DNA of 24,513 nt, taken from a virus. The notes beneath the pieces were generated by a model, which worked only from the letters and a program-made list of their open reading frames with translations, did no database searches and was not told where the DNA came from. The translations under genes were made by a program, and so were the position numbers. Location of the stretch: the UHGV virus genome UHGV-0864142; one strand, given 5' to 3'. Below, piece after piece: positions 1-24,513 of the stretch (position 1 is its first letter; each line of letters begins with the position of its first letter).

Positions 1-311
1 TTGCGTGCGGCGAACGATGTGACGCACTGAACGGTGGTGTTAGTCAGAATGTATCTCCAGAACGACAGCCCGATTTCCTTGCTGAAGCCGCGAATCTCTG
101 GCAGGTACATGGCGTGGCAATCGAATGTCAGCGGCTGAATCTCCTGATAGTAAACAATGCCGCCGAACTGACCGTGCACGTTCACCTCAAAGTAACGGCA
201 ATCAGGTTTGTAGTCGTATCCATCACCGTTGTTGCTCCCGGCAATAATGTCAGGGTGATTTCCGACTGCTTCTATCAGGTCGATGTTTCGCGTTGGTTTG
301 AACTGAATCAT
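1..311 (-). CDS. Virion protein encoded directly downstream of the tail needle (P22 gene 14 position); N-terminal 103 codons only, runs off the window start
   Basis: ATG at 311..309 overlaps the needle stop (TAATG). Frame is open to position 3 ([37 protein letters not shown]...). Product is guessed from position only. Confidence 0.5.
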   Translation of the reverse strand, partial: MIQFKPTRNIDLIEAVGNHPDIIAGSNNGDGYDYKPDCRYFEVNVHGQFGGIVYYQEIQPLTFDCHAMYLPEIRGFSKEIGLSFWRYILTNTTVQCVTSFAAR

Positions 312-1264
312 TACTGCTCCGCGATTATCTTGATGGTTGTGGCAGTAAACGCCGCACCATTCGACTGAATGGTTAACGTGCTGCCATTTGTGGCAAGAAA
401 GCCGTCTTTATCCACGCTGAAGAACGTAGCTAACAGGATGTTATCGGTAGTTGTCGCCGAGTTGCGGCTGCTTACCAGTGTGTCAGGAACAGAGCCGGAA
501 AAGGTTAGCTGCATTGACCTGTTGGCTGTTCCGCTGGGCCACGTCCCAACGATCGACAGCTTGAAGAACAAGGTTTTGTTCTCGTTGAACACAACCATCT
601 TGTTGTTAACGGTGTCGAAGAATGGTGCCAACGTGCCGGATGACGGCGTGAGCGTTTTCAGCAGGCTAACAAGGTTAGTCGGCGCTGTCGGGATGGTTAC
701 AGATACTCCTGAGTAAACAACCTCTGATTTCTTGCGCGTGGTGGCATACTCAAGCGCAGATATTCTTGTTGAGTGATCACCAACTGTGCTCTGTAGCGTC
801 GAAATACTTCCTTCTGCCGCTGTGAGCCTGGTATCAAGTGCGTCGATATCGGTTGTATTCTGAGTTATGCGCGCATCATGGTTTGCTAACTCAGATTCAT
901 TGGCAGCAATTCGCGTCTCGTGATCAGCCAGCTCTGTTTCAGCAGCCGTAATCCTTGTTTCATGATCTGCAAGAGTGCTTTCCGCTGCTGCGATTCTATG
1001 TTCATGATTGATGAGAGTTGCTTCAGCAGCTTCAATTCTGGATTCATGGTCTGCAAGGGTGACATCCTGCTCATCATTCTTCACCTGTGCATCATAAGCC
1101 CCCTTCCCTGCTTCGTTGGCCTTGTTCGCCACGTTACCAACATCAGTACCCTGTGCGATAACGTACAGCAGATATGACTGCGAGAAGATATTGCGTGGAA
1201 GGACTGATGTGTCTAGCCGTGTAGCCTGGATGATTACCGGCTCATTGAGATTAGAATCAGCCAT
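311..1264 (-). CDS. Tail needle / cell-envelope-penetrating protein (P22 gp26 family) with C-terminal knob domain, 317 aa
   Basis: N-terminus [18 protein letters not shown]...[14 protein letters not shown]...[13 protein letters not shown] matches the P22 gp26 N-terminal tip as I recall it. Followed by LADHExRIxAAE heptad repeats and a ~140 aa C-terminal extension as in Sf6/HK620-type knobbed needles. ATG at 1264..1262 overlaps the gp10 stop. The track ORF reaches 1366 only through a non-ATG start. Confidence 0.9.
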
Positions 1265-2682
1265 TACTCGATCCTTATCTGGCAGCCTGACAGAGTGACA
1301 GGTGACTTCGTGATAACGCGCAATTTGAAGCCAACATTTTTCCTGATGCGCCCGACTCGCTTCCACAAAACACGTTTGTCGTAAACGAACGGTTCATTCT
1401 GTTCAATCATCTGCTCACGTCCGTAATTTATGCCGTCAGTGGTTGCAGAGAGGAACAGGCGGTCGGCGTACTGCGCAACGCCAGTTGACGATTCAACCTC
1501 AAGATCGAACACTCTGGCGTTATCCGCTTTGAACAGAGGAGTAAACAGCAGATGTTCCTGTTGCTTGTCGTACTGGCTGCTGATATCGAATTGCAATTTC
1601 CCGGTCACCGATTCCAGCTTATCGCCGCACGTTATCTGATTGCCTTCGTAAATGAAGTCGATAGCGCGGTACACATCGTCATACAGTCCTGTTTTCAGTA
1701 CGCACCATTGCGGACCATTGGCGCTTGAAGATGCGTCGTACACGAGAACATGGCGCGGAAGATGGATAATCAGCAGCTCATGCGCATCAAATCGCAGCGA
1801 TTCCATCACGCCATCAGCCAGTTCATCAGCAGTGTAGGAGCGGAGGATTTTCTCAATGCTCGCACTGGCGATTGGTGACACCTGACCGGAGCCGATGATG
1901 TACACAGACGGCGCACCTGTTGCCGGATTGCTGATGAACGCATATGAATCAGAGAATGGCGTTTTGCAGTAAGTCCCGGCGATGCCTTTTTGCACCATCA
2001 GTGATGGCTGTGCGACATACAAAGCAGCACCAACGGTGGTTGCGCCAGTCAGGGAGAAATATTCAATCGTCGATGAACCAAAGCAGACGATGAAGTCTCG
2101 CCATGTTCCGATGCCGATGATACCGTCAGGCTGAGACTCAGCACGATATTGTGCGCTGTAACGGTCAGGATGCGATTCGTCTTCAAGGTCAGTGATAAAC
2201 CATGAATCAGTGCCGTCTTTTGACCACGCATAACGACCACGTAAGCTCGTAATGTCACGGACCGAACCTAACTCATACTGCGTGAATCCGCTGTCTGTAG
2301 GCCAGTTTGAGACGGTTTTAACCGTGCCATCATAGCGATACTCGACCAGTTGACCATTAACGCCTACCGCCTGTGATGTCCGACCGTGCGCCATTGATAC
2401 ACGACCACTTCCGGCAACATCACCGACTTCGCTTTCGCCCTTATACAACTTGCCACCACACACGCGATAAACAGCACTCTGCGCCATGTTGTACTCGACG
2501 CCGCGCGATACGCCGTTCACATCAGAACGTTTGGCAATGCCCGGGAATGAGCGAAGATATCCGCTGCTGTTCAGGATTTCTTTGGGTGTAGCCAGAATAT
2601 TCACTGGCAGATAGTCGATATAGTCGGCGTTTCGAAAGTCTTTGCCGACACCTTTCATAAGCGGAAGTTGCTGAATCGGCAT
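1264..2682 (-). CDS. Tail accessory / head-completion protein, P22 gp10 family (472 aa)
   Basis: Same length as P22 gp10 and same gene order (gp4, gp10, gp26). Recognised by recall. The stop overlaps the needle start. Confidence 0.85.
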
Positions 2683-2691
2683 TTATTCACC

Positions 2692-3153
2692 TCACGTACT
2701 CGGATCATCTTTCTCGATGTAAAACCGATTCCACGTAAACGCGCTTTTGTTACCACTACCGCGAGGCATGTCATTTCGCCGCTCAAGTGGTGGTATTTTG
2801 GTTAAAGCGATGCAGATTGTCTGATATGCACTGTCAGCAGCGGTAAGGAGAGCGTCTGACGGCTGAATGACGTTATCCATGCACACTTGCACAGCGAGTT
2901 TCAAAGCGACGCCATCATTTGCCCATGCAGGGATACCTGAATCATCGTCAGGTAACGGCATGATGCCGTTTTCTGTATCAGCAAACTGATACCCAAGCTC
3001 GATACCTTTAGCCTGCCATGCTGCCATCATGTCTTCGAGGTCATTAATGGCATCTTCAATTGCCTGAGGGTCAGCATCTGTCAACGTGGCATTGGAATAC
3101 AGCCCAGCTTTTCGTAAAGCCTTTAGAACGAGATCACCCTTCGTTTTCGCCAT
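2692..3153 (-). CDS. Tail accessory factor, P22 gp4 family (portal-binding head completion protein)
   Basis: 153 aa ORF directly upstream of the gp10 homolog in conserved P22-like order. Family call rests on size, position and recall. Confidence 0.8.
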   Translation of the reverse strand: MAKTKGDLVLKALRKAGLYSNATLTDADPQAIEDAINDLEDMMAAWQAKGIELGYQFADTENGIMPLPDDDSGIPAWANDGVALKLAVQVCMDNVIQPSDALLTAADSAYQTICIALTKIPPLERRNDMPRGSGNKSAFTWNRFYIEKDDPST

Positions 3154-3322
3154 CTTCTTCCGCCTTAGCCACTTTTTGCTTCGTTGCGGTTTCTTCAGGA
3201 GTTTTTACCCAACCTTTTTTCAGGTGAGATTTAACTTCTTCGTCATCAACAATGATGTAATCGACAGCAAACTGACCACAGGTGATCATGTTGCCAGGCT
3301 TATAGAGCATTGTTCGTGCCAT
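3134..3322 (-). CDS. Small hypothetical protein (62 aa) between coat and gp4 genes
   Basis: ATG at 3322 is preceded by GGGAGAAG (SD) 3 nt upstream and lies just after the coat terminator. The track ORF starts earlier at a TTG. The 3' end overlaps the gp4 start by 20 nt. Confidence 0.5.
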   Translation of the reverse strand: MARTMLYKPGNMITCGQFAVDYIIVDDEEVKSHLKKGWVKTPEETATKQKVAKAEEDGENEG

Positions 3323-3333
3323 TGTCTTCTCCC

Positions 3334-3356
3334 AATAAAAATGGGGCCGAAGCCCC
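3334..3356 (-). terminator. Intrinsic terminator downstream of coat gene (GGGGC-UUCG-GCCCC followed by AUUUUUAUU)
   Basis: Perfect 5-bp GC stem with a UUCG tetraloop and a U-rich tract on the minus strand, read directly. Likely partial, to over-express coat relative to downstream genes. Confidence 0.55.
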
Positions 3357-3363
3357 ACCAAAA

Positions 3364-4617
3364 TTACTGCCCGGCAATAACGATGCCCGTATATTCAGGA
3401 ACCAGTACAGAGCAACCGTACAGAGTGGTGAAACGCGCAGTGGTTACGCCTTTGATGTGGTCGAAGGCGTAAGACATGATCAGCGTAGCGCCCTGCTCGG
3501 TGGTTGCCGTCATTACCTGTGGACCCTGACCAGTTGGGAACGCCAGTTTGCCGTACATCAGTTCAACAGAACCATCAGCCCAGAACAGGTTAGCCGGTGC
3601 GGCATTTTTGTTGAGAATGGTGATTGCTGCGCTACTTGCCGCATTAGCATCAACGTTTGCATATGGACGGCTGGCGACATCCGCGTTGTCAGGCGGCAGA
3701 ATTTTCGGGGAGATAGTTACTGTCGTTCCGCTAACTGCCAGAACGCGGAATACCTGCGGCTGCCCGGTGGTATCTTTGGTGATCTGGTGTACGGAATTCA
3801 CCCCTGCGATGGTAAACGCATCGCCAACCTGCAAGCCTTCAGCAGATACCGTAATGGTCCCCTGTCGGTTATCCACTGGCATATCGTTAGCATCTTTCGC
3901 TTCAACCTTGTGCGCAGGTGCTGCTGCCAGCGTAATGGAAGTTGCTGTACCCTTCGGAACACGACCAGAAATATCGGTCTTGTAGCTATCGAAGGACGCA
4001 ACCGGAGGGATCTGCGCTTTTTCGTATGCTGTCAGGGTTGCGCCCTGAGCATAGGCACGGTGACCAAGCTCGCCAGCAAGGTCTTTATAGTTGAAGGGGT
4101 TCCAGAAAGAGCGGCGGTTGATACCCTGTGGTACACCAATCGCCGTCATGGTGGCATCAATACCTGCCGCACAGTTCCACAAATCACGGCCCTGTGAACC
4201 AGTGGTTGAGTCAGCCATTGTGATCACGTTAGTAGCACGCTGCGTGACCATGGAAATCAGATCAGAGTCAATCTGTGCAGCAAGGCGCATACCTGCGGCG
4301 CGACCAGCTTCAGTTTTATGTTCCGGGTCACGCATTTCACGCGCATCCAGAGTGTACAGAATGTTTTTCGGCTCCTTGAACACTGAAGGAACAAGGCGCT
4401 GAACCAGTGCTGTTGGCGTTTTGCCGCTGAGATCGAGGCCTTCCTCAATGTTCATGTGGTAATGCTGCGGACGATACAGAACATCACCTGCTCGCTGCAT
4501 TGCTGTATCACCGGGACGGAATTTTTTAGCGTTACGGGAAACTACGCAGGCGGCCTCAAAGCCTTCAACGTAGTTTTCGAACATGATTTCAAGGTCTTTT
4601 GCTAATTGGTTAGCCAT
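3364..4617 (-). CDS. Major capsid (coat) protein, P22/Sf6-like (417 aa)
   Basis: Lies between the scaffold and gp4 homologs. Size fits P22-family coat. C-terminal region (NLFWADGSVELMYGK) resembles the P22 coat motif FWADDAIRIV as recalled. Confidence 0.85.
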   Translation of the reverse strand: MANQLAKDLEIMFENYVEGFEAACVVSRNAKKFRPGDTAMQRAGDVLYRPQHYHMNIEEGLDLSGKTPTALVQRLVPSVFKEPKNILYTLDAREMRDPEHKTEAGRAAGMRLAAQIDSDLISMVTQRATNVITMADSTTGSQGRDLWNCAAGIDATMTAIGVPQGINRRSFWNPFNYKDLAGELGHRAYAQGATLTAYEKAQIPPVASFDSYKTDISGRVPKGTATSITLAAAPAHKVEAKDANDMPVDNRQGTITVSAEGLQVGDAFTIAGVNSVHQITKDTTGQPQVFRVLAVSGTTVTISPKILPPDNADVASRPYANVDANAASSAAITILNKNAAPANLFWADGSVELMYGKLAFPTGQGPQVMTATTEQGATLIMSYAFDHIKGVTTARFTTLYGCSVLVPEYTGIVIAGQ

Positions 4618-4635
4618 GCTTAATGCTCCGATAGG

Positions 4636-5529
4636 TTATTTTTTTGCCTTTTTAGCGGCGAAATACGGCGTCCAGTCACCAGTTTCCAGCGCCTTGGCTT
4701 TCAGTTTGTCGAGGTTATTGATTACTGCGCCGTTGCTCCCCTTAACTGTCGGGGTTGTGGCTGCCGTGGTTTTTGCTTTTGGCATGATTCTGGCCTTCGA
4801 TTCGATACGTTCCAGCAGACGACCAATTGCTACGGGGTTGGTAGCTTCTGCCAGTTGCTTGCGCAGTTCAGCGTTGCGACCAAGCGCCAGAACAACGATT
4901 TCCGGCTTCTCTGACTCAAACAGGATCGCGTTTTGTGTCTCGATGGGGATTTCCTCGAGTACGGCCTGTTCTGCTTCCTGATAGCCAGGAACCTTGAGAG
5001 CCTTAACACGTTGCTGATATTTGGATAATCGCTCTTGATAAGCAGCCTGAAGCTCCTGCTCCTTCTGCTTGCGAGCCTTCTCCTGTTGCTGGTACTTTCC
5101 GTTATCCTCTGCCCACTTAGCCATGCGTTGCTGATAGATTTCTTCATCGAAACCGATGTCCTCATCATCCAGTTTTGGCATTCGCGGTGGTTGAGTGATT
5201 ACTGGCTGCTGCTCGACGGGTTTCTGAGACTGACGCATCAGCTCTTTCAGCTCGCGGTCTTTCTCTTTAATCGTCTTGCGCAGGTGTTTTACCAGTCCAT
5301 GCTCTGCGCTATCTTCGCTGGTTGGCGAATCCAGCTTTTCGTCACCAAAGTAGAATTCCTGTTCTGATTCGTCGTCATCAGTTTCAGTAGCTTCCTCTGC
5401 ATCATTGCCGGAGGACTCACTGCCATCTTCTGTTTCGACTTCTTCAGCCAGTTCGACATCATCAGGAATCTGCTCTGATGTATCGGTTTCGATTTCAACT
5501 TCTGGTGTGTTTTCTGCCATCTGGTCCAT
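4636..5529 (-). CDS. Scaffolding protein (297 aa)
   Basis: Highly acidic N-terminus, charged coiled-coil-like middle (KEKDRELKELMRQ...EKARKQKEQELQAAYQERLSKYQQR) and basic C-terminal tail. Position between portal and coat. SD GGGG 6 nt upstream of ATG 5529. Confidence 0.75.
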   Translation of the reverse strand: MDQMAENTPEVEIETDTSEQIPDDVELAEEVETEDGSESSGNDAEEATETDDDESEQEFYFGDEKLDSPTSEDSAEHGLVKHLRKTIKEKDRELKELMRQSQKPVEQQPVITQPPRMPKLDDEDIGFDEEIYQQRMAKWAEDNGKYQQQEKARKQKEQELQAAYQERLSKYQQRVKALKVPGYQEAEQAVLEEIPIETQNAILFESEKPEIVVLALGRNAELRKQLAEATNPVAIGRLLERIESKARIMPKAKTTAATTPTVKGSNGAVINNLDKLKAKALETGDWTPYFAAKKAKK

Positions 5530-5619
5530 TTGTTACCCCTGTTTACTCGATGTTCAGCCCATCGGAAGGCAATAGGGTGCCAGGCCTCATAAAGACAGCC
5601 ATTGCACGTTATGGGTTAA

Positions 5620-7818
5620 TTACTGCTGTGGTTGTTGCTGAGTTGATTTTTGCAGGATGCTGCTGATGTCCATGCGCTGCGCATGGCCCTGTGCCTGACT
5701 TTTCAGGACAAGCTCTGCATCAGCACGGGCATTGTCTCCTTGCTGTTGCTGGAACTGTCCGAGCAGTTTCAGAGCCTCGCGGATATCAGATTTCTGCTGG
5801 CTATCGGCAGATGCGAGGATTTTCACAACATTTGCCGCTGCAACCTGAGCATCAGTCTGTGCCTGGAATGCTTTAACCTGAATGGCTGCCTGTTCGTTCT
5901 GCGCTTTCTGCAATTCAGCCTGACCAGCAAGAAGCTGACCTTGCGCAGCAACCATAGCAGGATCTGGCTGACTGGCCTGTTGTTGTTTCGCCTGCTCAAC
6001 CATCTGCTGTTCTTCTGGCGTTCTCGGCTTGATAACTCCAGACAGAAGCAACTGATTGCGGTTGTATTCTTTAAGGTCGTCCATCCCTTCGCCGTCCATA
6101 TTGTCGAGAATCATCGACGATACAAGGTCGTGCTTCGGCGTTCCTGGTGGGATAAGTGCCAGCATGGAAAGTAACGACTTAACCGTTGCATCACGGCGAG
6201 TAGCGAACGACTGACCGACATCGACAGTCACTTCATAGTTACCCTGCGAAAGGTCGTTAAGCGCGATAACCTGCCCTGTCTGACGGTCAACAACTTCACC
6301 AGTCATCAGCGCCACGTCATCGCTGCCGTCCTCATTAACGATACGCATCGGCGTATCACTGCCATAGACCTCACGCGCCATAGAAAGCCACACGACGCCA
6401 GCGCGGCGCATGGATTTAGCCATGTTGTCCATGTAGATATAGGACTGCGTATCCATCCGGTTAAAAATGCTATCAACGGTATCGGTGGCGACGTTGCTCG
6501 GCATGTTCTCAAGCTGCGACGCACCTGTAATTTGCTGAATAGCCGTTCCGGTGTATTGCAATAGCCCGGCAAGAGCTGGCGGCATTTGTGTCGGAGGTGT
6601 CCAGCCAGCAACCTGAGCTTCTGAAATGACTGTTCCGTTTTTGTCCTTCTTGCTGGTCATAGGAAGAACTGCAGGTCTTTTCTTATTCCTCTCTGCCCAG
6701 TGATTCATTAATGGGCCGGGAATGAAATCAACATCCACGATAGGAATGCCATCACCGCCAGCCTGAGTAGCGTTATCTGCAATCATAGAAACCATCAGGT
6801 TCTCAAGACGCTGTGCATCCATCGCTTTTGCTGCGTGGCCTTCTATTCGCTCCTGATTATCAACAAATGAGCGACGCCCATATACCGGGATGAGAGGAAT
6901 ATGTTCGCCCGGAATACGCTTCGGTTCTTCCAGCCATTCAGCGCCAGACAGAAGACCGCAATAAACGCGGCGCTTCTTCACCGTTCGCTCGCCAATCAGT
7001 TCGAATGCACCATCGGTCAGCTCGTCGACAATATCTTTGATTTGCTCTTCATCATAGATTGCCGTTTCTCCGCTGACAGGGTTACGCCATGCTGTGAGCT
7101 TCACCTTCTCTATGCGGACTTCGTAGTAACGTCCAACATAGATGGCATCGGGCGTTGACCAGTCATACTGAGTACCAGTGTCATCACGAGAAAGACTTGC
7201 CGCGATGGAGTCAGGGTATTCAGCCTCGAACGCTTTAGGCGTCATGGAGAACATTTCCATAGCCCACATAGCATCAGAGCGGTCATATTGCTTGCTGTCC
7301 TGATCGAAGAAGACGCATGTCGCTGGGTCGTAAACCGGGAGAAGGCTTATACGGCGTTGCTCGTTACTTGGGTCCATTTCATCTTCGTAATCAGCACACA
7401 TGCGGAAACAACCGAATCCGCCCGTTACAGCATCATCAAATGCGTTATCACACGCTTCGCCACCGGATGTTTCCTGATAATCAGCGCGGAATTTGCCGTT
7501 CATCTTTTCGGCTAACGCTTCCGATGCCTTATCGTCCTTCGGCCTGAATTTAACGCTGATGCGATTCTGTCGATACTCGCCAATGATGCGATCACATTCA
7601 CGGGCAATCTTATTCAGTTCAAAGCGCGGGTAATGCTCAAACCTGCCCTCATCAAATGAGTAACCAGCGTTTGTACTGCCTTCCCACTGTGCGCCGGACA
7701 CCCGGACGAAACGTTGAGCCTCAATAATCTGCTCACGCATATCCTGCGTTGCTGACCAGGCATTATCAAAGTTGCACAGCACCTTGCGATGCCAGTCAGT
7801 CATCTTTTTTTCTGCCAT
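5620..7818 (-). CDS. Portal protein (P22 gp1 family, 732 aa) with long C-terminal helical barrel
   Basis: Strong recalled similarity to P22 portal (GEHIP-IPV-G; PEEQQ...QQDPAMV-AQG-LL-GQAEL-KAQN; ARA-AEL-LK; QRMDI--ILQ). Confidence 0.95.
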   Translation of the reverse strand: MAEKKMTDWHRKVLCNFDNAWSATQDMREQIIEAQRFVRVSGAQWEGSTNAGYSFDEGRFEHYPRFELNKIARECDRIIGEYRQNRISVKFRPKDDKASEALAEKMNGKFRADYQETSGGEACDNAFDDAVTGGFGCFRMCADYEDEMDPSNEQRRISLLPVYDPATCVFFDQDSKQYDRSDAMWAMEMFSMTPKAFEAEYPDSIAASLSRDDTGTQYDWSTPDAIYVGRYYEVRIEKVKLTAWRNPVSGETAIYDEEQIKDIVDELTDGAFELIGERTVKKRRVYCGLLSGAEWLEEPKRIPGEHIPLIPVYGRRSFVDNQERIEGHAAKAMDAQRLENLMVSMIADNATQAGGDGIPIVDVDFIPGPLMNHWAERNKKRPAVLPMTSKKDKNGTVISEAQVAGWTPPTQMPPALAGLLQYTGTAIQQITGASQLENMPSNVATDTVDSIFNRMDTQSYIYMDNMAKSMRRAGVVWLSMAREVYGSDTPMRIVNEDGSDDVALMTGEVVDRQTGQVIALNDLSQGNYEVTVDVGQSFATRRDATVKSLLSMLALIPPGTPKHDLVSSMILDNMDGEGMDDLKEYNRNQLLLSGVIKPRTPEEQQMVEQAKQQQASQPDPAMVAAQGQLLAGQAELQKAQNEQAAIQVKAFQAQTDAQVAAANVVKILASADSQQKSDIREALKLLGQFQQQQGDNARADAELVLKSQAQGHAQRMDISSILQKSTQQQPQQ

Positions 7819-7819
7819 A

Positions 7820-17883: not shown

Positions 17884-17940
17884 CAGGATCCCCCTCGTTC
17901 TTAATCCAATAAAAAAGGGTTTTCTTCACTGAACACTCCT

Positions 17941-18126: not shown

Positions 18127-18128
18127 GC

Positions 18129-18392: not shown

Positions 18393-18409
18393 CGATACTT
18401 ACCCTCAGT

Positions 18410-18616
18410 TCAACTCACAAAACGCCACGCCATTTTTGCTACAGCGACAGGCGCAACACCGATAATCACCCAGACAAATGCAGCGCCAAACAACGTATAC
18501 CATGGGTCTTTACCGTCATTCACAAGACGAATGTAGCTATGCAGAACAATAAAAAACGTCAGAAGAATCCATCCAACGCCAACGCATTTGAATGCGACGA
18601 GCATAAACTCAGCCAC
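18410..18616 (-). CDS. Small membrane protein (68 aa, or 64 aa from ATG 18604)
   Basis: GTG 18616 preceded by GGGGGAGAG SD. Two predicted TM segments (GVGWILLTFFIVL and LFGAAFVWVIIGVAPVAVA). Confidence 0.5.
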   Translation of the reverse strand: MAEFMLVAFKCVGVGWILLTFFIVLHSYIRLVNDGKDPWYTLFGAAFVWVIIGVAPVAVAKMAWRFVS

Positions 18617-18629
18617 GATTTACTCTCCC

Positions 18630-18664
18630 CCAAATAAAAAGGCCTGCGATTACCAGCAGGCCTG
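18630..18664 (-). terminator. Intrinsic terminator downstream of helicase gene (tR2-like position)
   Basis: Minus-strand AGGCCUGC-UGGUAAUC-GCAGGCCU (perfect 8-bp stem) followed by UUUUUAUUU. Confidence 0.6.
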
Positions 18665-18691
18665 TTATTAGCTCAGTGATGTAGATGGTCA

Positions 18692-20128
18692 TCAGAATCC
18701 TCCTTTCTTCTTGGACTGCGGTTCCTCGCGTTCACGGCGGCGCATTTCAGCAGACTGTTGGTCTGTGTCATAAATAGCGCCATTTGCCTGAATGCAATAC
18801 ACCGTGCCGGTATTGCCATGACGGTTGAGACGAAGGATTAGTTCGGTTTCACCAGGTGGAACACTGTCATCAAAAGCACCTTCCCGGTGGATCCCCACCC
18901 AATAATCGCAATCCTGTTCAATCTGCCCTGTATCGCGCGAGTCACTTGGTAATGGGCGTTTATTGGTTCGGCTTTCCAATGCGCGGTTAAGCTGTGTCAG
19001 AAGCACAACAACGCAATCAAGCTCTTTGGCAAGGTTCTTCAGTCCTTTGGTGATCATGCCGTAAGCAAGGTCATTGCGATCGGCCTTCTCAGCGGTCATT
19101 AGTGTCAGGTAATCGACCAGAATCATGCCAACACATCCTTTTTCTCGCTTGATTCGACGGCTTTCGCTGACGATTTGAGCCAGAGATAATCCCGGCGTGT
19201 CGTCGATGTAAAGCATGTCGATTTCACTCAAGCGATTAGCTGTTTCGATCGCCCTGTTGAAGTCACCATCGTAATCACCCTGATAGCCGTCATCAGCGTC
19301 ATTTGTCGCCGGAAGGTAAAAAATATTCGGGTTAACACCAGACTTCTGCCCTACCAGTTTTTCCAGTATCTGATCACCTGGCATTTCAAGGCTGAACATC
19401 AAAGCGGGCTTTTTCTCATACACTGCGCAATTGATTGCCATCTGGCTGTATAGCGTCGTTTTCCCCATCTTAGGGCGAGCGCCAATGACAAACAGAGAGC
19501 CTTTCACCAGACCTTTCGGTGACAGCATCCTGTCCAGCGATGGGATCCCTGTGCTCATTCCCCGTTGTTCGCCTGATGGGTCAAATCGCTTCTCAAGGTC
19601 GCTAACCCAGTCTTCCATGACCTCACCAAATGAACGAAGGCCGCGACGCGATCCGGTTTTTGCATGGTCTGTCAGTTGCGTGAAAATCGACTGAATAGCT
19701 TCGTACTTCTGCGTTGCAGTCATTCCGTTGCGGGAATAGAGCAATTCCGTCGCTTCAGTCATGCGGTTGATGGCGTAGCGTTCCATTGCGGTTTCACGAA
19801 CCTGCATTGCATAGGCAACGATGTTTGCTGCGCTTGGCGTGTTCTTTGCGATCTCAGCGATATAAGCAAAACCGCCAACAGACGCCGTTAACGATTTACG
19901 CTCCAGTTCATCGAAAAGCGTCAGGCCATCTACTGGCTTTTGCTCCCGGTGCATTCTGGTTATTTCTTCGAAAAGGATTTTGTGTGGTCGGCTGTAAAAT
20001 GAATCAGGCTTCAGCATCGCCAGAACTTTCTGGACGCGCTCACTGCTGTCATCATCCAGAAGCAATCCACCAATCACCGCCTGCTCTGCCTCGATGCTAT
20101 GGGGCGGCGCATAAAAATTATCGGTCAT
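18692..20128 (-). CDS. Replicative DNA helicase, DnaB family (P22 gene 12-like), 478 aa
   Basis: DnaB-type N-terminal domain (HSIEAEQAVIGGLLLD), Walker A GARPKMGKT and RecA-like core. ATG 20128 with GAGGGTG SD. The track start at 20143 is a GTG extension. Confidence 0.92.
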   Translation of the reverse strand: MTDNFYAPPHSIEAEQAVIGGLLLDDDSSERVQKVLAMLKPDSFYSRPHKILFEEITRMHREQKPVDGLTLFDELERKSLTASVGGFAYIAEIAKNTPSAANIVAYAMQVRETAMERYAINRMTEATELLYSRNGMTATQKYEAIQSIFTQLTDHAKTGSRRGLRSFGEVMEDWVSDLEKRFDPSGEQRGMSTGIPSLDRMLSPKGLVKGSLFVIGARPKMGKTTLYSQMAINCAVYEKKPALMFSLEMPGDQILEKLVGQKSGVNPNIFYLPATNDADDGYQGDYDGDFNRAIETANRLSEIDMLYIDDTPGLSLAQIVSESRRIKREKGCVGMILVDYLTLMTAEKADRNDLAYGMITKGLKNLAKELDCVVVLLTQLNRALESRTNKRPLPSDSRDTGQIEQDCDYWVGIHREGAFDDSVPPGETELILRLNRHGNTGTVYCIQANGAIYDTDQQSAEMRRREREEPQSKKKGGF

Positions 20129-21008
20129 CGTGTTCACCCTCACGAACTTTCAGGTAGGTATTGTCGTTAAGCAGGAAATCAAATCCCTTTTTGTGCCAGA
20201 CGGTTCCGCGCTGATGGTTTGGGCGCTCTTCGAACATCCATCGGCAATTTTCGCCTACGTAGCTCAAATAATTTCTCCAGTCCTGCATCGTGAAACCATG
20301 CCCGTCAAGCTGTCGGGTTATCACTCCGGCTTTGCGCCAGAACGTTCGGATCTGGTTTTTACGCTTGTCATTCAGTGCGCGGATTCTTGGCGCTTCAGGA
20401 AGGATTTCGTGGTAAGCATCGACAACATCCTGACAGCTGACGGAAGGTTTTTTCTTGTCAGACTTTTTGTCTGCTGTAGCACTCTCTAATACGTCAGTAT
20501 TAGAGATATTATTTATATTATTGTTTATGGACAACCGTTGGACAACCGTTGGACAATCTCCGCTGAGAGCCGCACCATTACTGGTGTTTGCGTTGGACAA
20601 CTGTTGGACAACCGTTGGACAATTTTTTGCCTGAAAATCGTCATATTTAACGATTGTAAACAGGCTAAATTTCTTCCCCATCGAGCAAATATTAAGCATC
20701 CCTTTCGACTCAAAAGTCCGTAATAAGCTCCGAACTTTGTTGTCAGGGATGAATGTTTCTCTGACCAGAGACGGGCGTCCAGTTATCATCTGACCGCGAT
20801 CAACAGTTATCGGACCGATATCCGTATTGACGACAGTAGATTCGTGATTAGCCTTGAGGATTAAGTGAAGCCAAAGATGTACTGCCTGAGAGTCCTTATA
20901 GAGCCTGCTGTCCATAAACTGGCGGTGTATAGAGACATACCCCATACTGGATGCCTCCTGATGTTGTACAGGGTTATGCCTGTAATCAGCTAACTTAACG
21001 ACGCCCAT
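20118..21008 (-). CDS. Replication initiator, lambda O / P22 gene 18-like (296 aa), with origin iterons inside the coding sequence
   Basis: Sits where lambdoid O sits (after cII, before the helicase). Iterons fall in its central linker. ATG 21008 with GGAG SD. Confidence 0.8.
   Translation of the reverse strand: MGVVKLADYRHNPVQHQEASSMGYVSIHRQFMDSRLYKDSQAVHLWLHLILKANHESTVVNTDIGPITVDRGQMITGRPSLVRETFIPDNKVRSLLRTFESKGMLNICSMGKKFSLFTIVKYDDFQAKNCPTVVQQLSNANTSNGAALSGDCPTVVQRLSINNNINNISNTDVLESATADKKSDKKKPSVSCQDVVDAYHEILPEAPRIRALNDKRKNQIRTFWRKAGVITRQLDGHGFTMQDWRNYLSYVGENCRWMFEERPNHQRGTVWHKKGFDFLLNDNTYLKVREGEHDDR
20529..20626. repeat. Replication origin iterons: six about 11-bp direct repeats (GGACAAC[C/T]GTT) in two triplets, flanked by an AT-rich stretch (about 20487-20528)
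   Basis: Read directly: GGACAACCGTTGGACAACCGTTGGACAA at 20529-20556 and GGACAACTGTTGGACAACCGTTGGACAA at 20595-20622. AT-rich region lies downstream relative to O transcription, as in lambda ori. Confidence 0.75.
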
Positions 21009-21156
21009 GTTTCACTCCTGCTTTGGCTAGTCTGTAAACACCAACAAGGCGCTCTGCGAACGCCCTGTTATTTGCTGCGGCTACCACTAATCCCTCAGGT
21101 GAATCAGGGTGTCGAATCTCTTCTTTTTCCTGGTATTTCTTACGACGTTTTGTCAT
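20995..21156 (-). CDS. Small basic hypothetical protein (53 aa) between cII and O
   Basis: Not in the supplied track. ATG 21156 with GGGAG 5 nt upstream; translates MTKRRKKYQEKEEIRHPDSPEGLVVAAANNRAFAERLVGVYRLAKAGVKHGRR. Overlaps the O start by 14 nt. Confidence 0.4.
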   Translation of the reverse strand: MTKRRKKYQEKEEIRHPDSPEGLVVAAANNRAFAERLVGVYRLAKAGVKHGRR

Positions 21157-21190
21157 AATTACTCCCGTGGATTGATCCAGTCTTTCTACA

Positions 21191-21469
21191 TTAGGCCTCG
21201 AAGAATTCGCCGTTCTTCGGGGCTTTTTCTTTTGTCAGCATTCTGGCTACTTTCTTAGCCAGTTCCGCCAACTCCTCGTCTTCAACACCCCATTCAAGAA
21301 CAGCCAGAAGCATTCCCATTTTTGGGATGAAGCTGTCTTTCCATCGCGAAATTTGCGATTCATTAATCCCTAACGCGTCGGCAACCTTTCGCTGACCACG
21401 TACAGCAATTCGATTCAGGATGTTGCTTGTAATTGCATTCGCTTTCTTGCGAGTACTTGTAAGTTGCAT
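21191..21469 (-). CDS. cII: CII-like transcriptional activator (92 aa)
   Basis: Resembles lambda CII as recalled (ILNRIA..G..K.A...G...SQISRWK...IPK..MLLAVLEWGV.D...A.LA..VA). Confidence 0.85.
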   Translation of the reverse strand: MQLTSTRKKANAITSNILNRIAVRGQRKVADALGINESQISRWKDSFIPKMGMLLAVLEWGVEDEELAELAKKVARMLTKEKAPKNGEFFEA

Positions 21470-21525
21470 ATGTAAGTATTTCCTTAACTAATAAGAAGTT
21501 ATGCGCATCAACTTATGCGCGTTGT

Positions 21526-21571
21526 ATTCCCGCATTTCGGCGGGAATGAGGACCATGACTGTTAAAGAGCG
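21526..21571 (-). promoter_or_regulatory. nutR: boxA (CGCUCUUUAACA) and boxB hairpin (AUUCCCGC-CGAAAU-GCGGGAAU)
   Basis: boxA-like element 8 nt after the cro stop, with a hairpin 12 nt further. The same boxA/boxB pair occurs upstream of N (nutL). Confidence 0.65.
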
Positions 21572-21577
21572 GTGTTA

Positions 21578-21772
21578 CTATTTGTTTTTCTTGTTGCTTG
21601 GGAAAGGACGAACTTCCTCTCCAATCACACTGCCATCAGGCTTTACCGTAACCATGATGTTACGGCCTGCCAGAATGGCCTTGCTGATAGCGCACTGGAT
21701 TACACCAAAGTCACTGGCTGCTTTAGCCTGTCCATGGATTTTGGCGTAATCGGCAAGTGTCATTCGAATCAT
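21578..21772 (-). CDS. cro: Cro repressor (64 aa)
   Basis: Resembles lambda Cro as recalled (ITL.DYA...GQ.K.A.D.GV.Q.AI.KAI.AGR.I......DGSV..EEV.PFPSNKK). ATG 21772 with GGAGAG SD; the track start is a GTG two codons upstream. Confidence 0.85.
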
Positions 21773-21801
21773 ATGCACTCTCCGTTATTAACCATGAACA
21801 A

Positions 21802-21872
21802 AGAATACTACAGGTATTCAAGGCAATCAATACTCAGGGTATTTTTAGTTTAAGTACCTTAGCTATTAGAAT
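21802..21872. promoter_or_regulatory. Right operator region: OR1/OR2/OR3 (AATAC-N5-GTATT) overlapping divergent promoters PR (cro) and PRM (cI)
   Basis: Perfect 15-bp palindromes at 21804-21818 and 21829-21843; degenerate third site at 21853-21867. PR (minus strand): -35 TTGATT, 17-nt spacer, -10 TATTCT. PRM: candidate -10 TAGAAT at 21867-21872, 6 nt before the cI ATG. Confidence 0.65.
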
Positions 21873-21878
21873 TAAGCT

Positions 21879-22595
21879 ATGGAAAATAAAAAATCACTGA
21901 CGACAGAACAGCTCGAAGACGCTAAGCGGCTTAAGGCTTTGTATGAGTCAAAAAAGAAAGAATTGGGAATAACCCAATACTCAATCGCTGATGAACTGGG
22001 TATCACCCAAGGAGCGGTAGGGCATTATCTTAATGGCAGAAATGCGCTAAACGTTGAGGTTGCATCTGGTTTTGCACGATTATTGCAAGTCTCAATTGCT
22101 GATTTTAGCCAGTCAATTGCTGCCAAGGTTGCAGAACAGGCAGAAAGCCTTAAGAGCGATGCCAACGTAAGGTATGCAGGGGAATACAGAGCAGGAAAGA
22201 GGTATCCGGTGTTAAGCAGTATCCAGGCTGGCTCGTGGTGTGAAGCATGCGAACCATACACCATTAAAGACATAGATGTTTGGCTTGAGTCTGACGCGCA
22301 TATTCAAGGTAATGCGTTTTGGCTTAAAGTGGAAGGTGATTCAATGACGGCACCGGTTGGGTTAAGCATTCCAGAGGGAACATTCGTTCTTTTCGATACC
22401 GGAAGGGAGGCGATCAACGGCAGCTTGGTCATAGCAAAACTTTCTGACTCTAACGAAGCAACATTCAAGAAGCTGATAATCGACGGCGGAAATAAATACC
22501 TCAAGGGACTTAACCCTGCATGGCCTCTCGTGCCAATCAATGGAAACTGCAAGATTATAGGCGTTGCAATTGAGACAAAACTAAGGCTGGTTTGA
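21879..22595 (+). CDS. cI: CI-type prophage repressor (HTH plus LexA-like S24 autopeptidase domain), 238 aa
   Basis: Ends resemble lambda CI as recalled (KK.LT.EQLEDA.RLKA.YE.KK.ELG; FWL.VEG.SMTAP; FKKLI.D). Ala-Gly cleavage site (SIQAGSW), catalytic Ser in GDSM and Lys in FKKL. Recognition helix region differs, implying distinct immunity. Confidence 0.92.
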   Translation: MENKKSLTTEQLEDAKRLKALYESKKKELGITQYSIADELGITQGAVGHYLNGRNALNVEVASGFARLLQVSIADFSQSIAAKVAEQAESLKSDANVRYAGEYRAGKRYPVLSSIQAGSWCEACEPYTIKDIDVWLESDAHIQGNAFWLKVEGDSMTAPVGLSIPEGTFVLFDTGREAINGSLVIAKLSDSNEATFKKLIIDGGNKYLKGLNPAWPLVPINGNCKIIGVAIETKLRLV

Positions 22596-22612
22596 TCACG
22601 CAAGGGGCGCTT

Positions 22613-22981
22613 ATGGTTGGAACCGCTATAGCAAGCTTTTTTGGGATGTTGGCAATCTCGACAATTTACGGCTTAGCGCATGCTTTTATTGCGAAATCTC
22701 TATCAGAAAAAATAAGCCAGGCTTGGGCGCATAGATCAGCTCGTTTCATGATTCTGGTGATCATGGCAATACAAGGGATATCTGCATTTTTCCTCTATGG
22801 ATCAAGCTTATACCTATTGTATCAAGGCGCGACATTTACGCCTTACACCAGTGATTACGGAACTCTATACGATGGTAGTGAAGACATCTCTATGGCTTGG
22901 ATTGTCTTTGGTTTATCTATGGCCGTGTCTGTTGTAGCAGACATCATTAAGGTAATTCTCGTCTTAACCTTCGCTGACTAA
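22613..22981 (+). CDS. Three-TM membrane protein (122 aa) in the rex position downstream of cI
   Basis: ATG 22613 with AAGGGG 5 nt upstream, 18 nt after the cI stop. Three long hydrophobic segments. No similarity to RexA/RexB that I recognise. Confidence 0.65.
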   Translation: MVGTAIASFFGMLAISTIYGLAHAFIAKSLSEKISQAWAHRSARFMILVIMAIQGISAFFLYGSSLYLLYQGATFTPYTSDYGTLYDGSEDISMAWIVFGLSMAVSVVADIIKVILVLTFAD

Positions 22982-23068
22982 CCCATAATCCCGGCAGCAA
23001 TAGCTATCGGGATCCACTTCACATATCCCGCATAAAAAGCACTGAACAAGCAGACACCGAAAAAAATA

Positions 23069-23155
23069 AATATCCTTTGTATTCATTTGCTTATCATTAT
23101 TTCACCAAAAATAAATACCTTGGGTATTTACACAATAAAATACCTACAGTATTCT
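23069..23155 (+). promoter_or_regulatory. Left operator region OL with promoter PL (-35 TTTACA 23127-23132, -10 TATTCT 23150-23155)
   Basis: Perfect AATAC-N5-GTATT sites at 23114-23128 and 23139-23153, same half-sites as OR. Weaker third site AATAT-N5-GTATT at 23069-23083. Promoter hexamers overlap the operators. Confidence 0.6.
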
Positions 23156-23200
23156 TTAGCCATCAGCAGGACGCTGGTAGCCAAACGGAACAGATTGGCA

Positions 23201-23242
23201 GGCTCTTTAACATTGATGGGATTGTCCCGCCGAAATGCGGGA
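23201..23242 (+). promoter_or_regulatory. nutL: boxA (GGCTCTTTAACA) and boxB hairpin (UCCCGC-CGAAAU-GCGGGA)
   Basis: Same boxA core and identical boxB loop/stem as nutR, with the same 12-nt boxA-boxB spacing. Lies between PL and N. Confidence 0.65.
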
Positions 23243-23349
23243 ACCAAAGAGTAGTTGGCTTTGGGGTGACGTGAAGTGCAGCTGCACGACGGCAACCGGA
23301 AGATAAGCACCCGGCGCGTCACCGCCAAAGTCAATCATCGGAGGTCAAC

Positions 23350-23649
23350 ATGACAGTAGTCATTACATATCTGGCTGACGATAACGCCAGAAATCGCCGC
23401 AGAGCACGCAGACAGGCTCAACGTGAACAGGCAATGCAAGAGCAGCGACTGGCGCGAAAAATTGCGCTAAAGCTCTCTGGTTGCGTCAGAGCAGACAAAG
23501 CAGCATCACTCGGAAGCCTTCGCTGCAAGAAGGCAGAAGAAGTCGAGCGTAAACAGAACCGTATTTACTACCGCAAGCCACGCAGTGAAATGGGGGTGAC
23601 TTGTGTTGGTCGCCAGAAAATGAAATTAGGCAGCAAACCACTTATTTGA
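23350..23649 (+). CDS. N: N-type transcription antiterminator (99 aa)
   Basis: Arg-rich N-terminal motif (NARNRRRARRQAQREQ). C-terminal ...RKQNRIYYRKPRSEMGVTCVGRQKMKLGSKPLI resembles the lambda N C-terminus (...RKNQRTWYSKPGERGITCSGRQKIKGKSIPLI) as recalled. GGAGG SD. Confidence 0.85.
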   Translation: MTVVITYLADDNARNRRRARRQAQREQAMQEQRLARKIALKLSGCVRADKAASLGSLRCKKAEEVERKQNRIYYRKPRSEMGVTCVGRQKMKLGSKPLI

Positions 23650-23657
23650 GGTGAGAT

Positions 23658-23744
23658 ATGGAAGAAGAATTTGAAGAGTTCGAAGAGCATCCTCAGGATG
23701 TGATGGAACAATACCAGGACTATCCGTATGACTACGACTATTGA
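23658..23744 (+). CDS. Very acidic, aromatic-rich micro-ORF (28 aa) directly after N
   Basis: Not in the supplied track. GAGGTGAGA SD then ATG 23658; translates MEEEFEEFEEHPQDVMEQYQDYPYDYDY. Stop overlaps the next ORF by 17 nt. Confidence 0.35.
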   Translation: MEEEFEEFEEHPQDVMEQYQDYPYDYDY

Positions 23745-23928
23745 TAAAAATCAATGGTGTGGACAATTCAAGCGATGCAATGGATGCAAGCTGCAATCGG
23801 AATGCATGGTTAAGCCTGAAGAAATGTTTCCTGTAATGGAAGATGGGAAATATGTCGATAAATGGGCAATACGAACGACGGCAATGATTGCCAGAGAACT
23901 TGGTAAACAGAATAACAAGGCTGCCTGA
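23728..23928 (+). CDS. Small Cys-rich protein (66 aa), possible zinc ribbon
   Basis: ATG 23728; cysteines C11, C17, C20, C26 (WCGQFKRCNGCKLQSEC). Family not recognised. Confidence 0.5.
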   Translation: MTTTIDKNQWCGQFKRCNGCKLQSECMVKPEEMFPVMEDGKYVDKWAIRTTAMIARELGKQNNKAA

Positions 23929-23968
23929 CGGTGGCCTTTATTTTTGGCATAAACAATATGGGGTAAAA

Positions 23969-24295
23969 ATGAAAGTTTTAATGGTTTATGAAAATGTTCC
24001 AGAGTCGACTGAAATCTATATTTTTGATGCCAATGAAGATGAAGTTAACGATTTGAAATTGTCTCACGGCAATTACACAAATGCTAATTGTGATGAAAGT
24101 ATCGAAAAAGCACTATCACGTGTTCTTGTCAGAATTAGTGATCCAGAACATTGTGATGATGATTGGCTTTCTTATTGTGGAGCGGTAAAAACTGATGCAG
24201 GAAAATGGAGTAAAAGTAAAGTTGATAACTCAACTCCAATCATTATGAAAGATAGCGATATTGAAATGGTAATAATAACCGGAATGATTATGTAG
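23969..24295 (+). CDS. Hypothetical acidic protein (108 aa) in an AT-rich segment
   Basis: ATG 23969 with GGGG 5 nt upstream; the track ORF starts earlier at a TTG. The region looks AT-rich by eye compared with the rest of the prophage. Confidence 0.55.
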   Translation: MKVLMVYENVPESTEIYIFDANEDEVNDLKLSHGNYTNANCDESIEKALSRVLVRISDPEHCDDDWLSYCGAVKTDAGKWSKSKVDNSTPIIMKDSDIEMVIITGMIM

Positions 24296-24401
24296 GCTGC
24301 GAATAAGCACTGTGTATTCATTCCAACGAGTGAATACACGGAGCAATGTCGCTCGTAACTAAACAGGAGCCGACTTGTTCTGATTATTGGAAATCTTCTT
24401 T

Positions 24402-24428
24402 GCCCTCTAATGTGAGGGCGATTTTTTT
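24402..24428 (+). terminator. Intrinsic terminator (GCCCTC-TAATGT-GAGGGC then GATTTTTTTG) within the PL operon
   Basis: Perfect 6-bp GC-rich stem followed by a T7 run, 12 nt before the next RBS and ATG. Expected to be bypassed by N antitermination. Confidence 0.65.
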
Positions 24429-24440
24429 GACGGAGGATAT

Positions 24441-24513
24441 ATGAGTGAAGTAACAGACTTAGTTGTTATTGAAAAAGCAAATGCAATGACTGTATTTCAG
24501 TCTGCCGACCAGA
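24441..24513 (+). CDS. Start of a further early-left-operon gene (first 24 codons; runs off window end)
   Basis: GGAGG SD at 24432-24436, ATG 24441, open to the window end (MSEVTDLVVIEKANAMTVFQSADQ...). Product unknown. Confidence 0.4.
   Translation, partial: MSEVTDLVVIEKANAMTVFQSADQ

Follow-up and report, generated by a model that had tools for sequence, protein, structure and literature searches.

Pervasive mosaicism has long been established for the lambdoid and P22-like phages, and Casjens and Thuman-Commike, in 2011, reportedly divided the procapsid modules of the P22-like group into P22, Sf6 and CUS-3 types. The subject of this report is the viral sequence UHGV-0864142, whose 24,513 nucleotides (the whole stretch analysed, called the window below) we compared with these phages. 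We read it, with a probability of about 0.93, as the late and early-right half of an ordinary P22-like (Lederbergvirus) lambdoid temperate phage, a natural recombinant of circulating modules. This is textbook lambdoid mosaicism and no new kind of element: the individual modules were all previously known, and the full combination is the only new part.

Mosaic early regions, exchange within the nin and early genes, and a lambda-like Q in P22-like phages have already been described (PMC2629481), and the ejection-protein genes of P22, L, Sf6, HK620 and CUS-3 are highly mosaic (PMC10883804).

Gene content and order

The window covers about 24.5 kb. It begins in gene 14, takes in the genes of the head, of packaging and lysis, Q, the nin genes and those of replication and immunity, and ends in the start of the early-left operon. 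According to the map of open reading frames (orfs), the minus strand carries, from high to low coordinates, cro, cII, O, P, the nin genes, Q, S-R-Rz/Rz1, accessory genes, TerS, TerL, portal, scaffold, coat, gp4, gp10, the needle and the start of gp14, and the plus strand carries, at the right end, cI, a small orf, N, ral and one further orf. The late genes follow the order TerS-TerL-portal-scaffold-coat-(small orf)-gp4-gp10-gp26-gp14, with order and gene lengths as in CUS-3. All genes in the window are intact and equal in length to their homologues. P22-family virion proteins are recognised, all above gathering scores, by PF16510 (E 4e-170), PF11651 (E 1e-75), PF11650, PF11134 (E 9e-299) and PF16532, and the virion families found with Pfam and PHROG are Sf6_terminase, Terminase_3, P22_portal, P22_CoatProtein, P22_Tail-4, Phage_stabilise and the Sf6-type needle knob. 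The arrangement is lambdoid, with cI divergent from cro-cII-O-P-nin-Q-lysis, antitermination by N and Q, and tripartite operators; the same two collections identify an S24/HTH repressor, Cro, CII, an N-like protein (N = phrog_271), Q (Antiterm), Ral, NinB and a lambda-type holin.

The best phage matches are classified in the genus Lederbergvirus. No int, att or host flank was found within the window; prophage status is plausible because the relatives are chromosomal, and these relatives point almost with certainty to E. coli or Shigella as the host. Relatives with an identical needle carry the ejection proteins gp7/gp20/gp16 and a tailspike with the P22 head-binding domain, whose slot lies beyond the window start. 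Neither a tRNA nor an Rfam family at gathering score was detected in the window, which is therefore without the phage 21/Sf6-type tRNAs downstream of Q. PADLOC gave no match on ten accessory orfs.

A block mosaic

The references used for local alignment were lambda, HK620, Sf6, P22, phiv205-1, CUS-3, a fragment of SE1, the best-matching E. coli prophage (266917_2) and phage 21 (nine in all), and identity was scored in 100-bp bins as at least 90%, intermediate or unaligned. The first-pass annotation had described the window as a block mosaic spanning several recombination junctions. Nucleotide alignment bore this out: uniform moderate divergence from one reference is clearly not what is seen, because identity is bimodal against every reference, lying at 95-100% or giving way to no alignment. 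Indeed, blastn blocks that are 93-99% identical alternate with no alignment at all (lambda, P22, Sf6, HK620, CUS-3, phiv205-1, SE1, phage 21). Against HK620, Sf6, CUS-3, phiv205-1 and the 266917_2 prophage, 42-71% of the bins are at least 90% identical, 19-46% are unaligned and 7-12% are intermediate, while lambda, P22, SE1 and phage 21 each share 4-11% of the bins. The eight phage references jointly cover 88% of the bins at 90% identity or more, and six of them are needed for that figure.

Megablast of the whole window returned 664 phage records, none of which covers 80% of it; the best coverages are those of phiv205-1 (65%, at 95.5% identity), Kapi1 (61%), CUS-3 (59%) and HK620 (53%). Some sequence is shared with 5,149 of 5,426 complete E. 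coli genomes, only two of which reach 80% coverage, the best being 81% at 96%. An exact 70-mer from the coat I-domain occurs in 31 IMG/VR contigs, none of them above about 98% identical over long stretches, and in none of genome_contigs.

Comparison with named phages

CUS-3 (CP000711) and phiv205-1 (MN340231) resemble the window in gp10, gp4, coat, scaffold, portal and TerL (about 95% in nucleotides and 95-100% in amino acids over 1035-9320), in the lysis genes and in ninH-rus-hkbD(-roi); CUS-3 also shares ninE, ninF, ninB and N (98/99 amino acids). Both differ from it in the N-terminal 110 amino acids of TerS, the needle shaft and knob, the KilA-N gene, the coat I-domain patch, Q (of a different type in CUS-3), the entire replication module (P 32% and O 23% to CUS-3) and the immunity region (cI 42%). 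HK620 (NC_002730) has in common with the window cI, cro, cII, hkaS, OR1-3, OL1-2, P, the C-terminal domain of O, Q through roi, TerS, TerL and gp10. However, it has its own Sf6-type coat, scaffold, portal and gp4 and its own P22-type needle tip, and it differs in the N-terminal domain of O with the ori iterons, in ninB (39%), in Rz (58%) and in the C-terminal third of N.

Sf6 (NC_005344) is 98.5% identical in nucleotides over 18609-21494 (O, ori, P, a 53-amino-acid orf, cII) and shares TerS, TerL, Dam, ninE, ninB, the lysis genes with Rz and Rz1, the needle knob, ral and the tL2A linker. It differs in the procapsid genes (coat without a match, portal 56%), in a needle shaft shorter by 35 amino acids, in a phage 21-type Q with tRNAs, in a 434-like immunity region and in its IS911, which is not in the window.

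The general lambdoid gene order is also that of lambda (NC_001416), which has Q, pR'/qut, S, R, the 5' part of Rz, ninB, ral and the ninA/tR2 and tL2A linkers at 94-99% nucleotide identity. In contrast, there is no similarity to lambda in any virion or packaging gene, lambda P is replaced by a DnaB-type helicase, O is unrelated at the tblastn level, and cI (43%), cro (63%), cII (53%) and N (57% over a third of its length) are distant; 11% of the bins reach 90%. P22 (NC_002371) agrees with the window in gene order and in the protein family of every virion gene, and is close in Q (98%), ninB/ninE/ninF (96-97%), cII (86%), gp10 (93%) and the 3' half of Rz (96% in nucleotides). On the other hand, TerS and TerL have no tblastn match in P22, the endolysin, immunity region and needle tip are different, coat, portal, gp4, gp12 and gp18 are distant or unmatched (identities below), and 9% of the bins reach 90%. 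Phage 21 was rejected as a donor: only ninB, ninE, ral, linkers and the 3' part of N are in common.

Head and packaging genes

2692 to 7818, minus strand: CUS-3-type procapsid module, 95-100% amino acid identity to CUS-3 and phiv205-1
2692 to 3153, minus strand: gp4, 100% amino acid identity to CUS-3; P22_Tail-4
3134 to 3322, minus strand: 62-amino-acid orf, 98% amino acid identity to CUS-3
3364 to 4617, minus strand: coat, 95% amino acid identity to CUS-3; P22_CoatProtein; PDB 8skg, E 1e-265
3600 to 4000, minus strand: divergent coat patch, the surface I-domain (amino acids 222-337), 82-84% nucleotide identity to CUS-3 against 98% in the flanks
4636 to 5529, minus strand: scaffold, 99% amino acid identity to CUS-3
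5620 to 7818, minus strand: portal, 97% amino acid identity to CUS-3; P22_portal
7820 to 9235, minus strand: large terminase TerL, PF04466; 100% amino acid identity to CUS-3 and to Sf6 (96% coverage)
9232 to 9654, minus strand: small terminase TerS, Sf6/HK620-type; PF20901 Sf6_terminase, E 3e-44; 99% amino acid identity to Sf6 and HK620

Nucleotide identity to CUS-3 is about 95% across 1035-9320, and that to Sf6 and HK620 stops exactly at 2692. Portal, coat and gp4 had been called Sf6/P22-like, an assignment that has to be corrected: they are CUS-3-type, with 95-100% amino acid identity against at most 56% to Sf6 and at most 41% to P22. The coat has no tblastn match in Sf6 or HK620 and is 29% identical to that of P22, the scaffold is 33% identical to Sf6, the portal 56% to Sf6 and 35% to P22, and gp4 42% to Sf6 and 41% to P22; these identities exclude Sf6 or P22 as the donor of coat, portal, scaffold and gp4. 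The three-way split of procapsid modules into P22, Sf6 and CUS-3 types is seen directly in the measured values. Within the coat, 18 of the 22 amino acid differences from CUS-3 fall in residues 222-337, the stretch that aligned to the I-domain PDB chain 6mnt.

A further patch lies in the portal gene (6587-6739, minus strand, codons ~360-406), 72% identical in nucleotides to CUS-3 and 99% to phiv205-1. Fifteen of the 19 amino acid differences from the CUS-3 portal are in residues 360-406, and phiv205-1 differs at two positions only. The patch is an intragenic exchange in an otherwise uniform module.

The Sf6-like TerS and TerL of the first-pass annotation were found as such (99% and 100% amino acid identity to Sf6). 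High Sf6/HK620 nucleotide identity in the TerL region runs from 7876, 56 nucleotides before the TerL stop; identity to CUS-3 and phiv205-1 ends at 9320, at about codon 111 of 140 in TerS, whose C-terminal ~29 amino acids are also common to the CUS-3 TerS. Packaging would be headful as in Sf6, because the terminase is identical to that of Sf6. The pairing of a Sf6-type TerS with a CUS-3-type head occurs in two other loci as well (L022 and L014).

Needle and neighbouring virion genes

1 to 311, minus strand: N-terminal part of the gp14 homologue, the gene continuing past the window start
311 to 1264, minus strand: tail needle (gp26 homologue), 317 amino acids, HS1-type; PF16532, E 1.9e-108
1264 to 2682, minus strand: gp10, head-closure / DNA-stabilisation protein; PF11134, E 9e-299

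The needle of the HS1 prophage has 317 amino acids and 16 rather than 11 heptads, as set out in a paper that covers needle tip types (PMC3741392). The needle in the window has the same length of 317 amino acids as that of HS1 (PDB 4K6B) and Ala at residue 305 as described for it, the direct comparison being limited to the crystallised knob. Its plug domain (the N-terminal 60 amino acids) and C-terminal knob are 98-99% identical to Sf6, and the coiled-coil shaft between them is 35 amino acids (5 heptads) longer than in Sf6, with gaps of 14+14+7 amino acids in the alignment. The best PDB match is the HS1 knob 4k6b (E 1.3e-90), followed by the Sf6 knob 3rwn, and breakpoints within the gene lie at 758, 956 and 1061. 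The identical needle protein is found elsewhere behind P22-, Sf6- and CUS-3-type heads.

Gp10 is common to all the P22-like references, with 98-99% amino acid identity to Sf6, HK620 and CUS-3 and 93% to P22; these values and the Sf6-type knob (PF16532) agree with the earlier description of gp10 and a knobbed needle as Sf6/P22-like. The gp14 part is 90% identical in amino acids to Sf6 gp10 (the P22 gp14 homologue) and 86-89% to HK620, CUS-3 and phiv205-1, with nucleotide identities of 95-96%.

The nin region and replication

14467 to 18616, minus strand: nin region; the best donor changes at nearly every gene end
14467 to 16023, minus strand: ninH, rusA, hkbD (YbcO) and roi, HK620/CUS-3-type
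16016 to 16192, minus strand: ninF, 57/58 to CUS-3, 55/57 to P22, 45/52 to lambda
16185 to 16550, minus strand: ninX-like
16553 to 16729, minus strand: ninE, 57/58 to CUS-3, 52/56 to lambda
16726 to 17253, minus strand: Dam methylase, Sf6-type
17250 to 17690, minus strand: ninB, 145/146 to lambda; lambda/phage 21/CUS-3-type
17671 to 18616, minus strand: four small orfs
18612 to 18692, minus strand: ninA/tR2 linker, conserved in lambda, phage 21, P22, Sf6 and HK620
18692 to 21008, minus strand: replication module, Sf6/HK620-type
18692 to 20128, minus strand: P, DnaB-type helicase, 478 amino acids; PF00772 and PF03796; 99-100% amino acid identity to Sf6 and HK620
20118 to 21008, minus strand: O-like initiator, 296 amino acids; phrog_345, E 2.5e-85; 99% to Sf6, 66% to HK620
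20528 to 20626: ori iterons, two sets of three TTGTCCAACGG repeats inside O, near-identical to the Sf6 rep_origin

Lambda, phage 21, P22, Sf6, HK620 and CUS-3 all have conserved copies of ninE, ninF and ninB, which flank variable inserts. NinE and ninF had been thought lambda-identical, but they are 93% and 87% identical to lambda and nearer CUS-3 or P22. The ninA/tR2 linker, 98.6% identical to lambda and 92.9% to P22 over 18623-18693, has unrelated sequence on either side.

An O-like initiator with a DnaB-type helicase in place of lambda P had been recognised from the sequence, and phrog_345, PF00772 and PF03796 agree with this. The label of P22-type replication that went with it holds for the architecture (an initiator with internal ori followed by a DnaB-type helicase) but fails for the sequence: P is 31% identical to P22 gp12, O has no tblastn match to gp18 nor to lambda O, and no P22 nucleotide match was found across 18693-21147. 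P22 is thereby ruled out as the donor of the replication genes. Identity to HK620 ends at 20528, the edge of the ori; the HK620 O has different iterons (ATTACCAGCA) and an N-terminal domain that is 40-50% different. The C-terminal domain of O is essentially identical in the window, Sf6 and HK620, and is followed by the shared P.

Immunity region and early-left operon

21147 to 23541: HK620 immunity region, 98.5% nucleotide identity to HK620
21191 to 21469, minus strand: cII
21526 to 21571: nutR, mapped from the HK620 record
21578 to 21772, minus strand: cro, 64/64 to HK620
21803 to 21868: OR1-3, exact HK620 matches
21879 to 22595, plus strand: cI, 237/238 to HK620
22613 to 22981, plus strand: hkaS-like orf, 122 amino acids, phrog_6534
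23113 to 23154: OL2/OL1, exact HK620 matches
23201 to 23242: nutL, mapped from the HK620 record
23350 to 24513, plus strand: start of the early-left operon, assigned from per-gene amino acid identities and PHROG
23350 to 23649, plus strand: N, CUS-3-type, 98/99 amino acids
23728 to 23928, plus strand: ral, 66/66 to lambda
23969 to 24295, plus strand: 108-amino-acid orf, phrog_4658, without a Pfam or PADLOC match
24307 to 24427: tL2A linker, Sf6 'bsq4'

The immunity type is that of HK620. The operators read AATACC-N5-GGTATT, against TATCACCGC in lambda, and with the S24 peptidase and HTH domains of the repressor and the Pfam Cro match they support the view that the immunity proteins are of the lambda family with different operator half-sites. 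The 17-mer annotated as OL3 in HK620 has no exact match in the window. Identity to HK620 ends inside N, at 23541 (codon 64). The perfect identity of ral to lambda had gone unmentioned in the first-pass annotation.

The hkaS-like orf is hydrophobic, lies directly downstream of cI and has no PADLOC match. From this position it may be expressed from the prophage like lambda rexAB, and is a candidate exclusion or defence gene.

Late control and lysis

11940 to 13178, minus strand: lysis cassette, assigned from amino acid identities to lambda, Sf6, P22 and CUS-3
11940 to 12398, minus strand: Rz, 5' end lambda-type, 3' half Sf6/P22/CUS-3-type
11993 to 12178, minus strand: Rz1, embedded in Rz, lipobox LLGVSAC, Sf6/P22/CUS-3-type
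12395 to 12871, minus strand: R, 156/158 to lambda
12855 to 13178, minus strand: S, 105/107 to lambda
13747 to 14470, minus strand: late control (Q, pR' and qut), lambda-type
13804 to 13776, minus strand: pR' promoter TTGACT-17-TAAATT, from a promoter scan and the sequence
13847 to 14470, minus strand: Q, 206/207 to lambda, 98% to P22

With 206/207, 105/107, 156/158 and 145/146 identical residues, Q, S, R and ninB are essentially lambda-identical, as the first-pass annotation had it. Its wider claim of lambda-identical control genes stands for Q and pR'/qut and falls for N, cI, cro and cII, which are not lambda's. The Q-S interval is 98% identical in nucleotides to lambda (13601-14400), and identity to lambda ends at 14480, at the start of Q. 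At the other end of the cassette, identity to lambda sets in at 12129 and becomes high at 12300, while Sf6, CUS-3 and P22 are 96-99% identical over 11791-12235.

At codon 2 of the holin S (13170-13178, minus strand) the window has MMMPEK against the MKMPEK dual start of lambda, Sf6, HK620, CUS-3 and phiv205-1 (AAG to ATG). In lambda the longer S107 product owes its antiholin character to Lys2, and the K2M change could abolish the antiholin. Only 2 short contigs of the whole collection encode the exact 107-amino-acid holin and none the 106-amino-acid version; the change may be a private mutation or a sequencing error.

Junctions and the route of exchange

Breakpoints were taken as the ends of megablast high-scoring segment pairs against the nine references, clustered to 60. 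Intergenic positions, or positions at most 25 bp from a gene end, account for 42 of the 60 clusters, against 19.7% of positions expected (binomial p 5e-17). Alignments to different references often begin or end at one shared base: seven references do so at 24307, six have an end at 10158-10163, and five or six have one at 10909 and at 11034-11037. In addition, junctions of the window coincide with six 'boundary sequences' that the depositors of Sf6 and CUS-3 had annotated:

24307 to 24419: Sf6 bsq4, tL2A
21149 to 21181: Sf6 bsq5, left edge of the HK620 immunity region
18612 to 18692: Sf6 bsq6, ninA/tR2
12282 to 12329: Sf6 bsq7, inside Rz
13179 to 13419: CUS-3 bsq3, upstream of S
23155 to 23335: CUS-3 bsq5, pL-nutL leader

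The breakpoints coincide both with gene ends and with short conserved linkers, the two kinds of place suggested by the first-pass annotation, and most of the identifiable linkers are known regulatory sites (nutL, nutR, tR2/ninA, tL2A). The interpretable intragenic junctions (O, TerS, N, Rz, needle, coat) lie at domain borders. The break in TerS precedes the C-terminal segment adjoining the shared TerL, that in N, at codon 64, follows an N-terminal part which, with both nut sites, is common to HK620 and CUS-3, and that in Rz precedes the part overlapping Rz1. Partners are kept together across the window: the O N-terminus with the iterons, the O C-terminus with P, cI-cro with the operators, the N N-terminus with nut, Q with qut, the Rz C-terminus with Rz1, and the TerS C-terminus with TerL.

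The exchanges are best explained by homologous recombination within conserved linkers, or by rare illegitimate events, after which selection would have retained the functional combinations. The contributing modules are a CUS-3-type procapsid and N; a Sf6/HK620-type TerS; an HS1-type knobbed needle; a Salmonella-phage-type KilA-N gene; lambda-type S, R, Q-pR'-qut, ninB and ral; a Sf6-type ori with the O N-terminal domain; an HK620/Sf6-type O C-terminal domain with P; and the HK620 immunity region.

The same mosaic might have been produced by random illegitimate recombination and selection (the Hendrix model), the linkers being conserved as regulatory sites and not as crossover points. We regard this as a serious possibility, although somewhat less probable than not. 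The 18 intragenic clusters among the 60 would fit it, as would the junctions at 2692, 9836/10160 and 17919, which have no shared flanking sequence among the references used, and the fact that most identified linkers are functional sites (nutL, nutR, tR2 and tL2A); the start or stop of many references at the same linker base is, however, what repeated homologous crossover predicts. The homologous and illegitimate mechanisms are compatible, and one sequence cannot separate them.

An older idea, that of boundary-sequence linkers, is said to come from Susskind and Botstein and from Clark. In line with it, junction islands would be kept partly as crossover sites for module swaps among P22-like and lambda-like phages, as selected 'linkers' with a role beyond that of regulatory sites, a proposition that we consider unlikely. 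Its clearest case would be the following feature:

10909 to 11036: conserved intergenic 128-bp island

The island is 97-100% identical in P22, HK620, Sf6, CUS-3, phiv205-1 and SE1, and 96.8-99.3% identical over 29 copies in the fetched loci, while its flanking genes are unrelated between phages. Its predicted RNA fold is no better than those of shuffled sequences (z = -0.65), and no coding signal was found in it, the internal 22-codon orf carrying non-synonymous polymorphism.

Weighing the natural recombinant

Certain points weigh against the natural recombinant, or against parts of it. Per module the best relatives reach 95-98% identity, and over long stretches none exceeds 99%. The binomial test on the breakpoints assumes that clusters are independent, which strictly they are not, and its outcome depends on the panel of nine references. 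The headful mode is predicted from the identity to the Sf6 terminase, and a single sequence does not reveal which recombination mechanism made each joint.

An assembler might have merged several related prophages, from a single genome or metagenome, into one contig, which we hold to be very improbable. Places related to the window do number 2 in the median E. coli genome and as many as 13 in others, the conserved linkers are repeats at which assemblers can switch, and no database sequence matches the whole window. Nevertheless, for 47 of the 60 breakpoints the fetched loci include at least one independent sequence that runs across colinearly, and the remaining ones lie in three stretches, each crossed in one piece at ~98.5% identity by complete E. 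coli chromosomes:

10400 to 12100: crossed in Z1323CEC0012
17600 to 18750: crossed in strain 44
23600 to 24513: crossed in LR-24 and 23CRST013

The genes, moreover, are intact and of homologue length, and the coupled parts match in type (O N-terminus/iterons, cI-cro/operators, N/nut, Q/qut). We do not take the window for an assembly chimera, because every junction is spanned by independent genomes. Joints are crossed and pairings recur elsewhere; each local joint therefore already exists in nature, and only the full combination is absent from the collections searched.

That the window is no mosaic, but has diverged from a single known ancestor phage, such as CUS-3 or HK620, with blocks left by uneven mutation rates, has practically no probability: shared modules are indeed 93-98% and not 100% identical, and intermediate stretches exist (the 5' part of portal, 62-68% to Sf6, and the coat I-domain patch), but intermediate bins are few in the five main references (the 7-12% given above), identity switches within a few bases at positions common to several references, the O N-terminus and ori are 99% identical to Sf6 where the HK620 iterons are unrelated, and gp4 through portal are 95-100% identical to CUS-3 against 0-56% to Sf6, so that bimodal bins, sharp switches and the change of donor at O/ori refute it.

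Accessory genes and small orfs

9678 to 11952, minus strand: variable accessory region, from the lysis genes to TerS, described with Pfam, PHROG and the block map
9678 to 9857, minus strand: hkbN-like gene
9867 to 10154, minus strand: 95-amino-acid orf, phrog_11049, without a Pfam or PADLOC match
10158 to 10400, minus strand: DUF2560/hkbM
10504 to 10875, minus strand: Sf6 gp66-like gene, PF13876
11063 to 11593, minus strand: KilA-N gene (Pfam KilA-N)
11800 to 11952, minus strand: 50-amino-acid orf

The KilA-N block is ~94% identical in nucleotides to the Salmonella phages SE1, ST104 and PS119, and the stretch crossed in E. coli Z1323CEC0012 is colinear there at 98.5%. The Sf6 gp66-like gene, a member of the Sf6 gene 66 / N4 gp49 family, is itself mosaic inside, with 73% identity to Sf6 in its middle part and 92-98% at either end; the homologue in phage Huey has been auto-annotated 'anti-CRISPR protein', a putative label.

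Two small orfs have no megablast match in the phage collection. The 95-amino-acid orf occurs nevertheless in 4298 blocks of the assembly collection, and in every locus shown it has the DUF2560 gene on one side and the hkbN-like gene on the other, upstream of TerS, in prophages whose heads are of the P22, Sf6 or CUS-3 type. The AT-rich 108-amino-acid orf occurs in 991 blocks of the assembly collection. All eight loci shown have it in the early-left operon, where it follows ral or another small orf downstream of N and precedes the gp17-like or cIII genes. This slot is the usual place of anti-restriction and exclusion genes.

Implications

The window has little weight beyond annotation, being one more combination in the large and well-described pool of P22-like lambdoid phages. 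It illustrates cleanly that exchange keeps to the ends of genes, to regulatory linkers and to the borders of protein domains. Its practical use lies in the labels attached to the modules, a CUS-3-type capsid, a Sf6-type TerS, an HS1-type needle, an HK620 immunity region and a Sf6-type origin, which predict the superinfection immunity, the packaging mode and the replication specificity of the phage.

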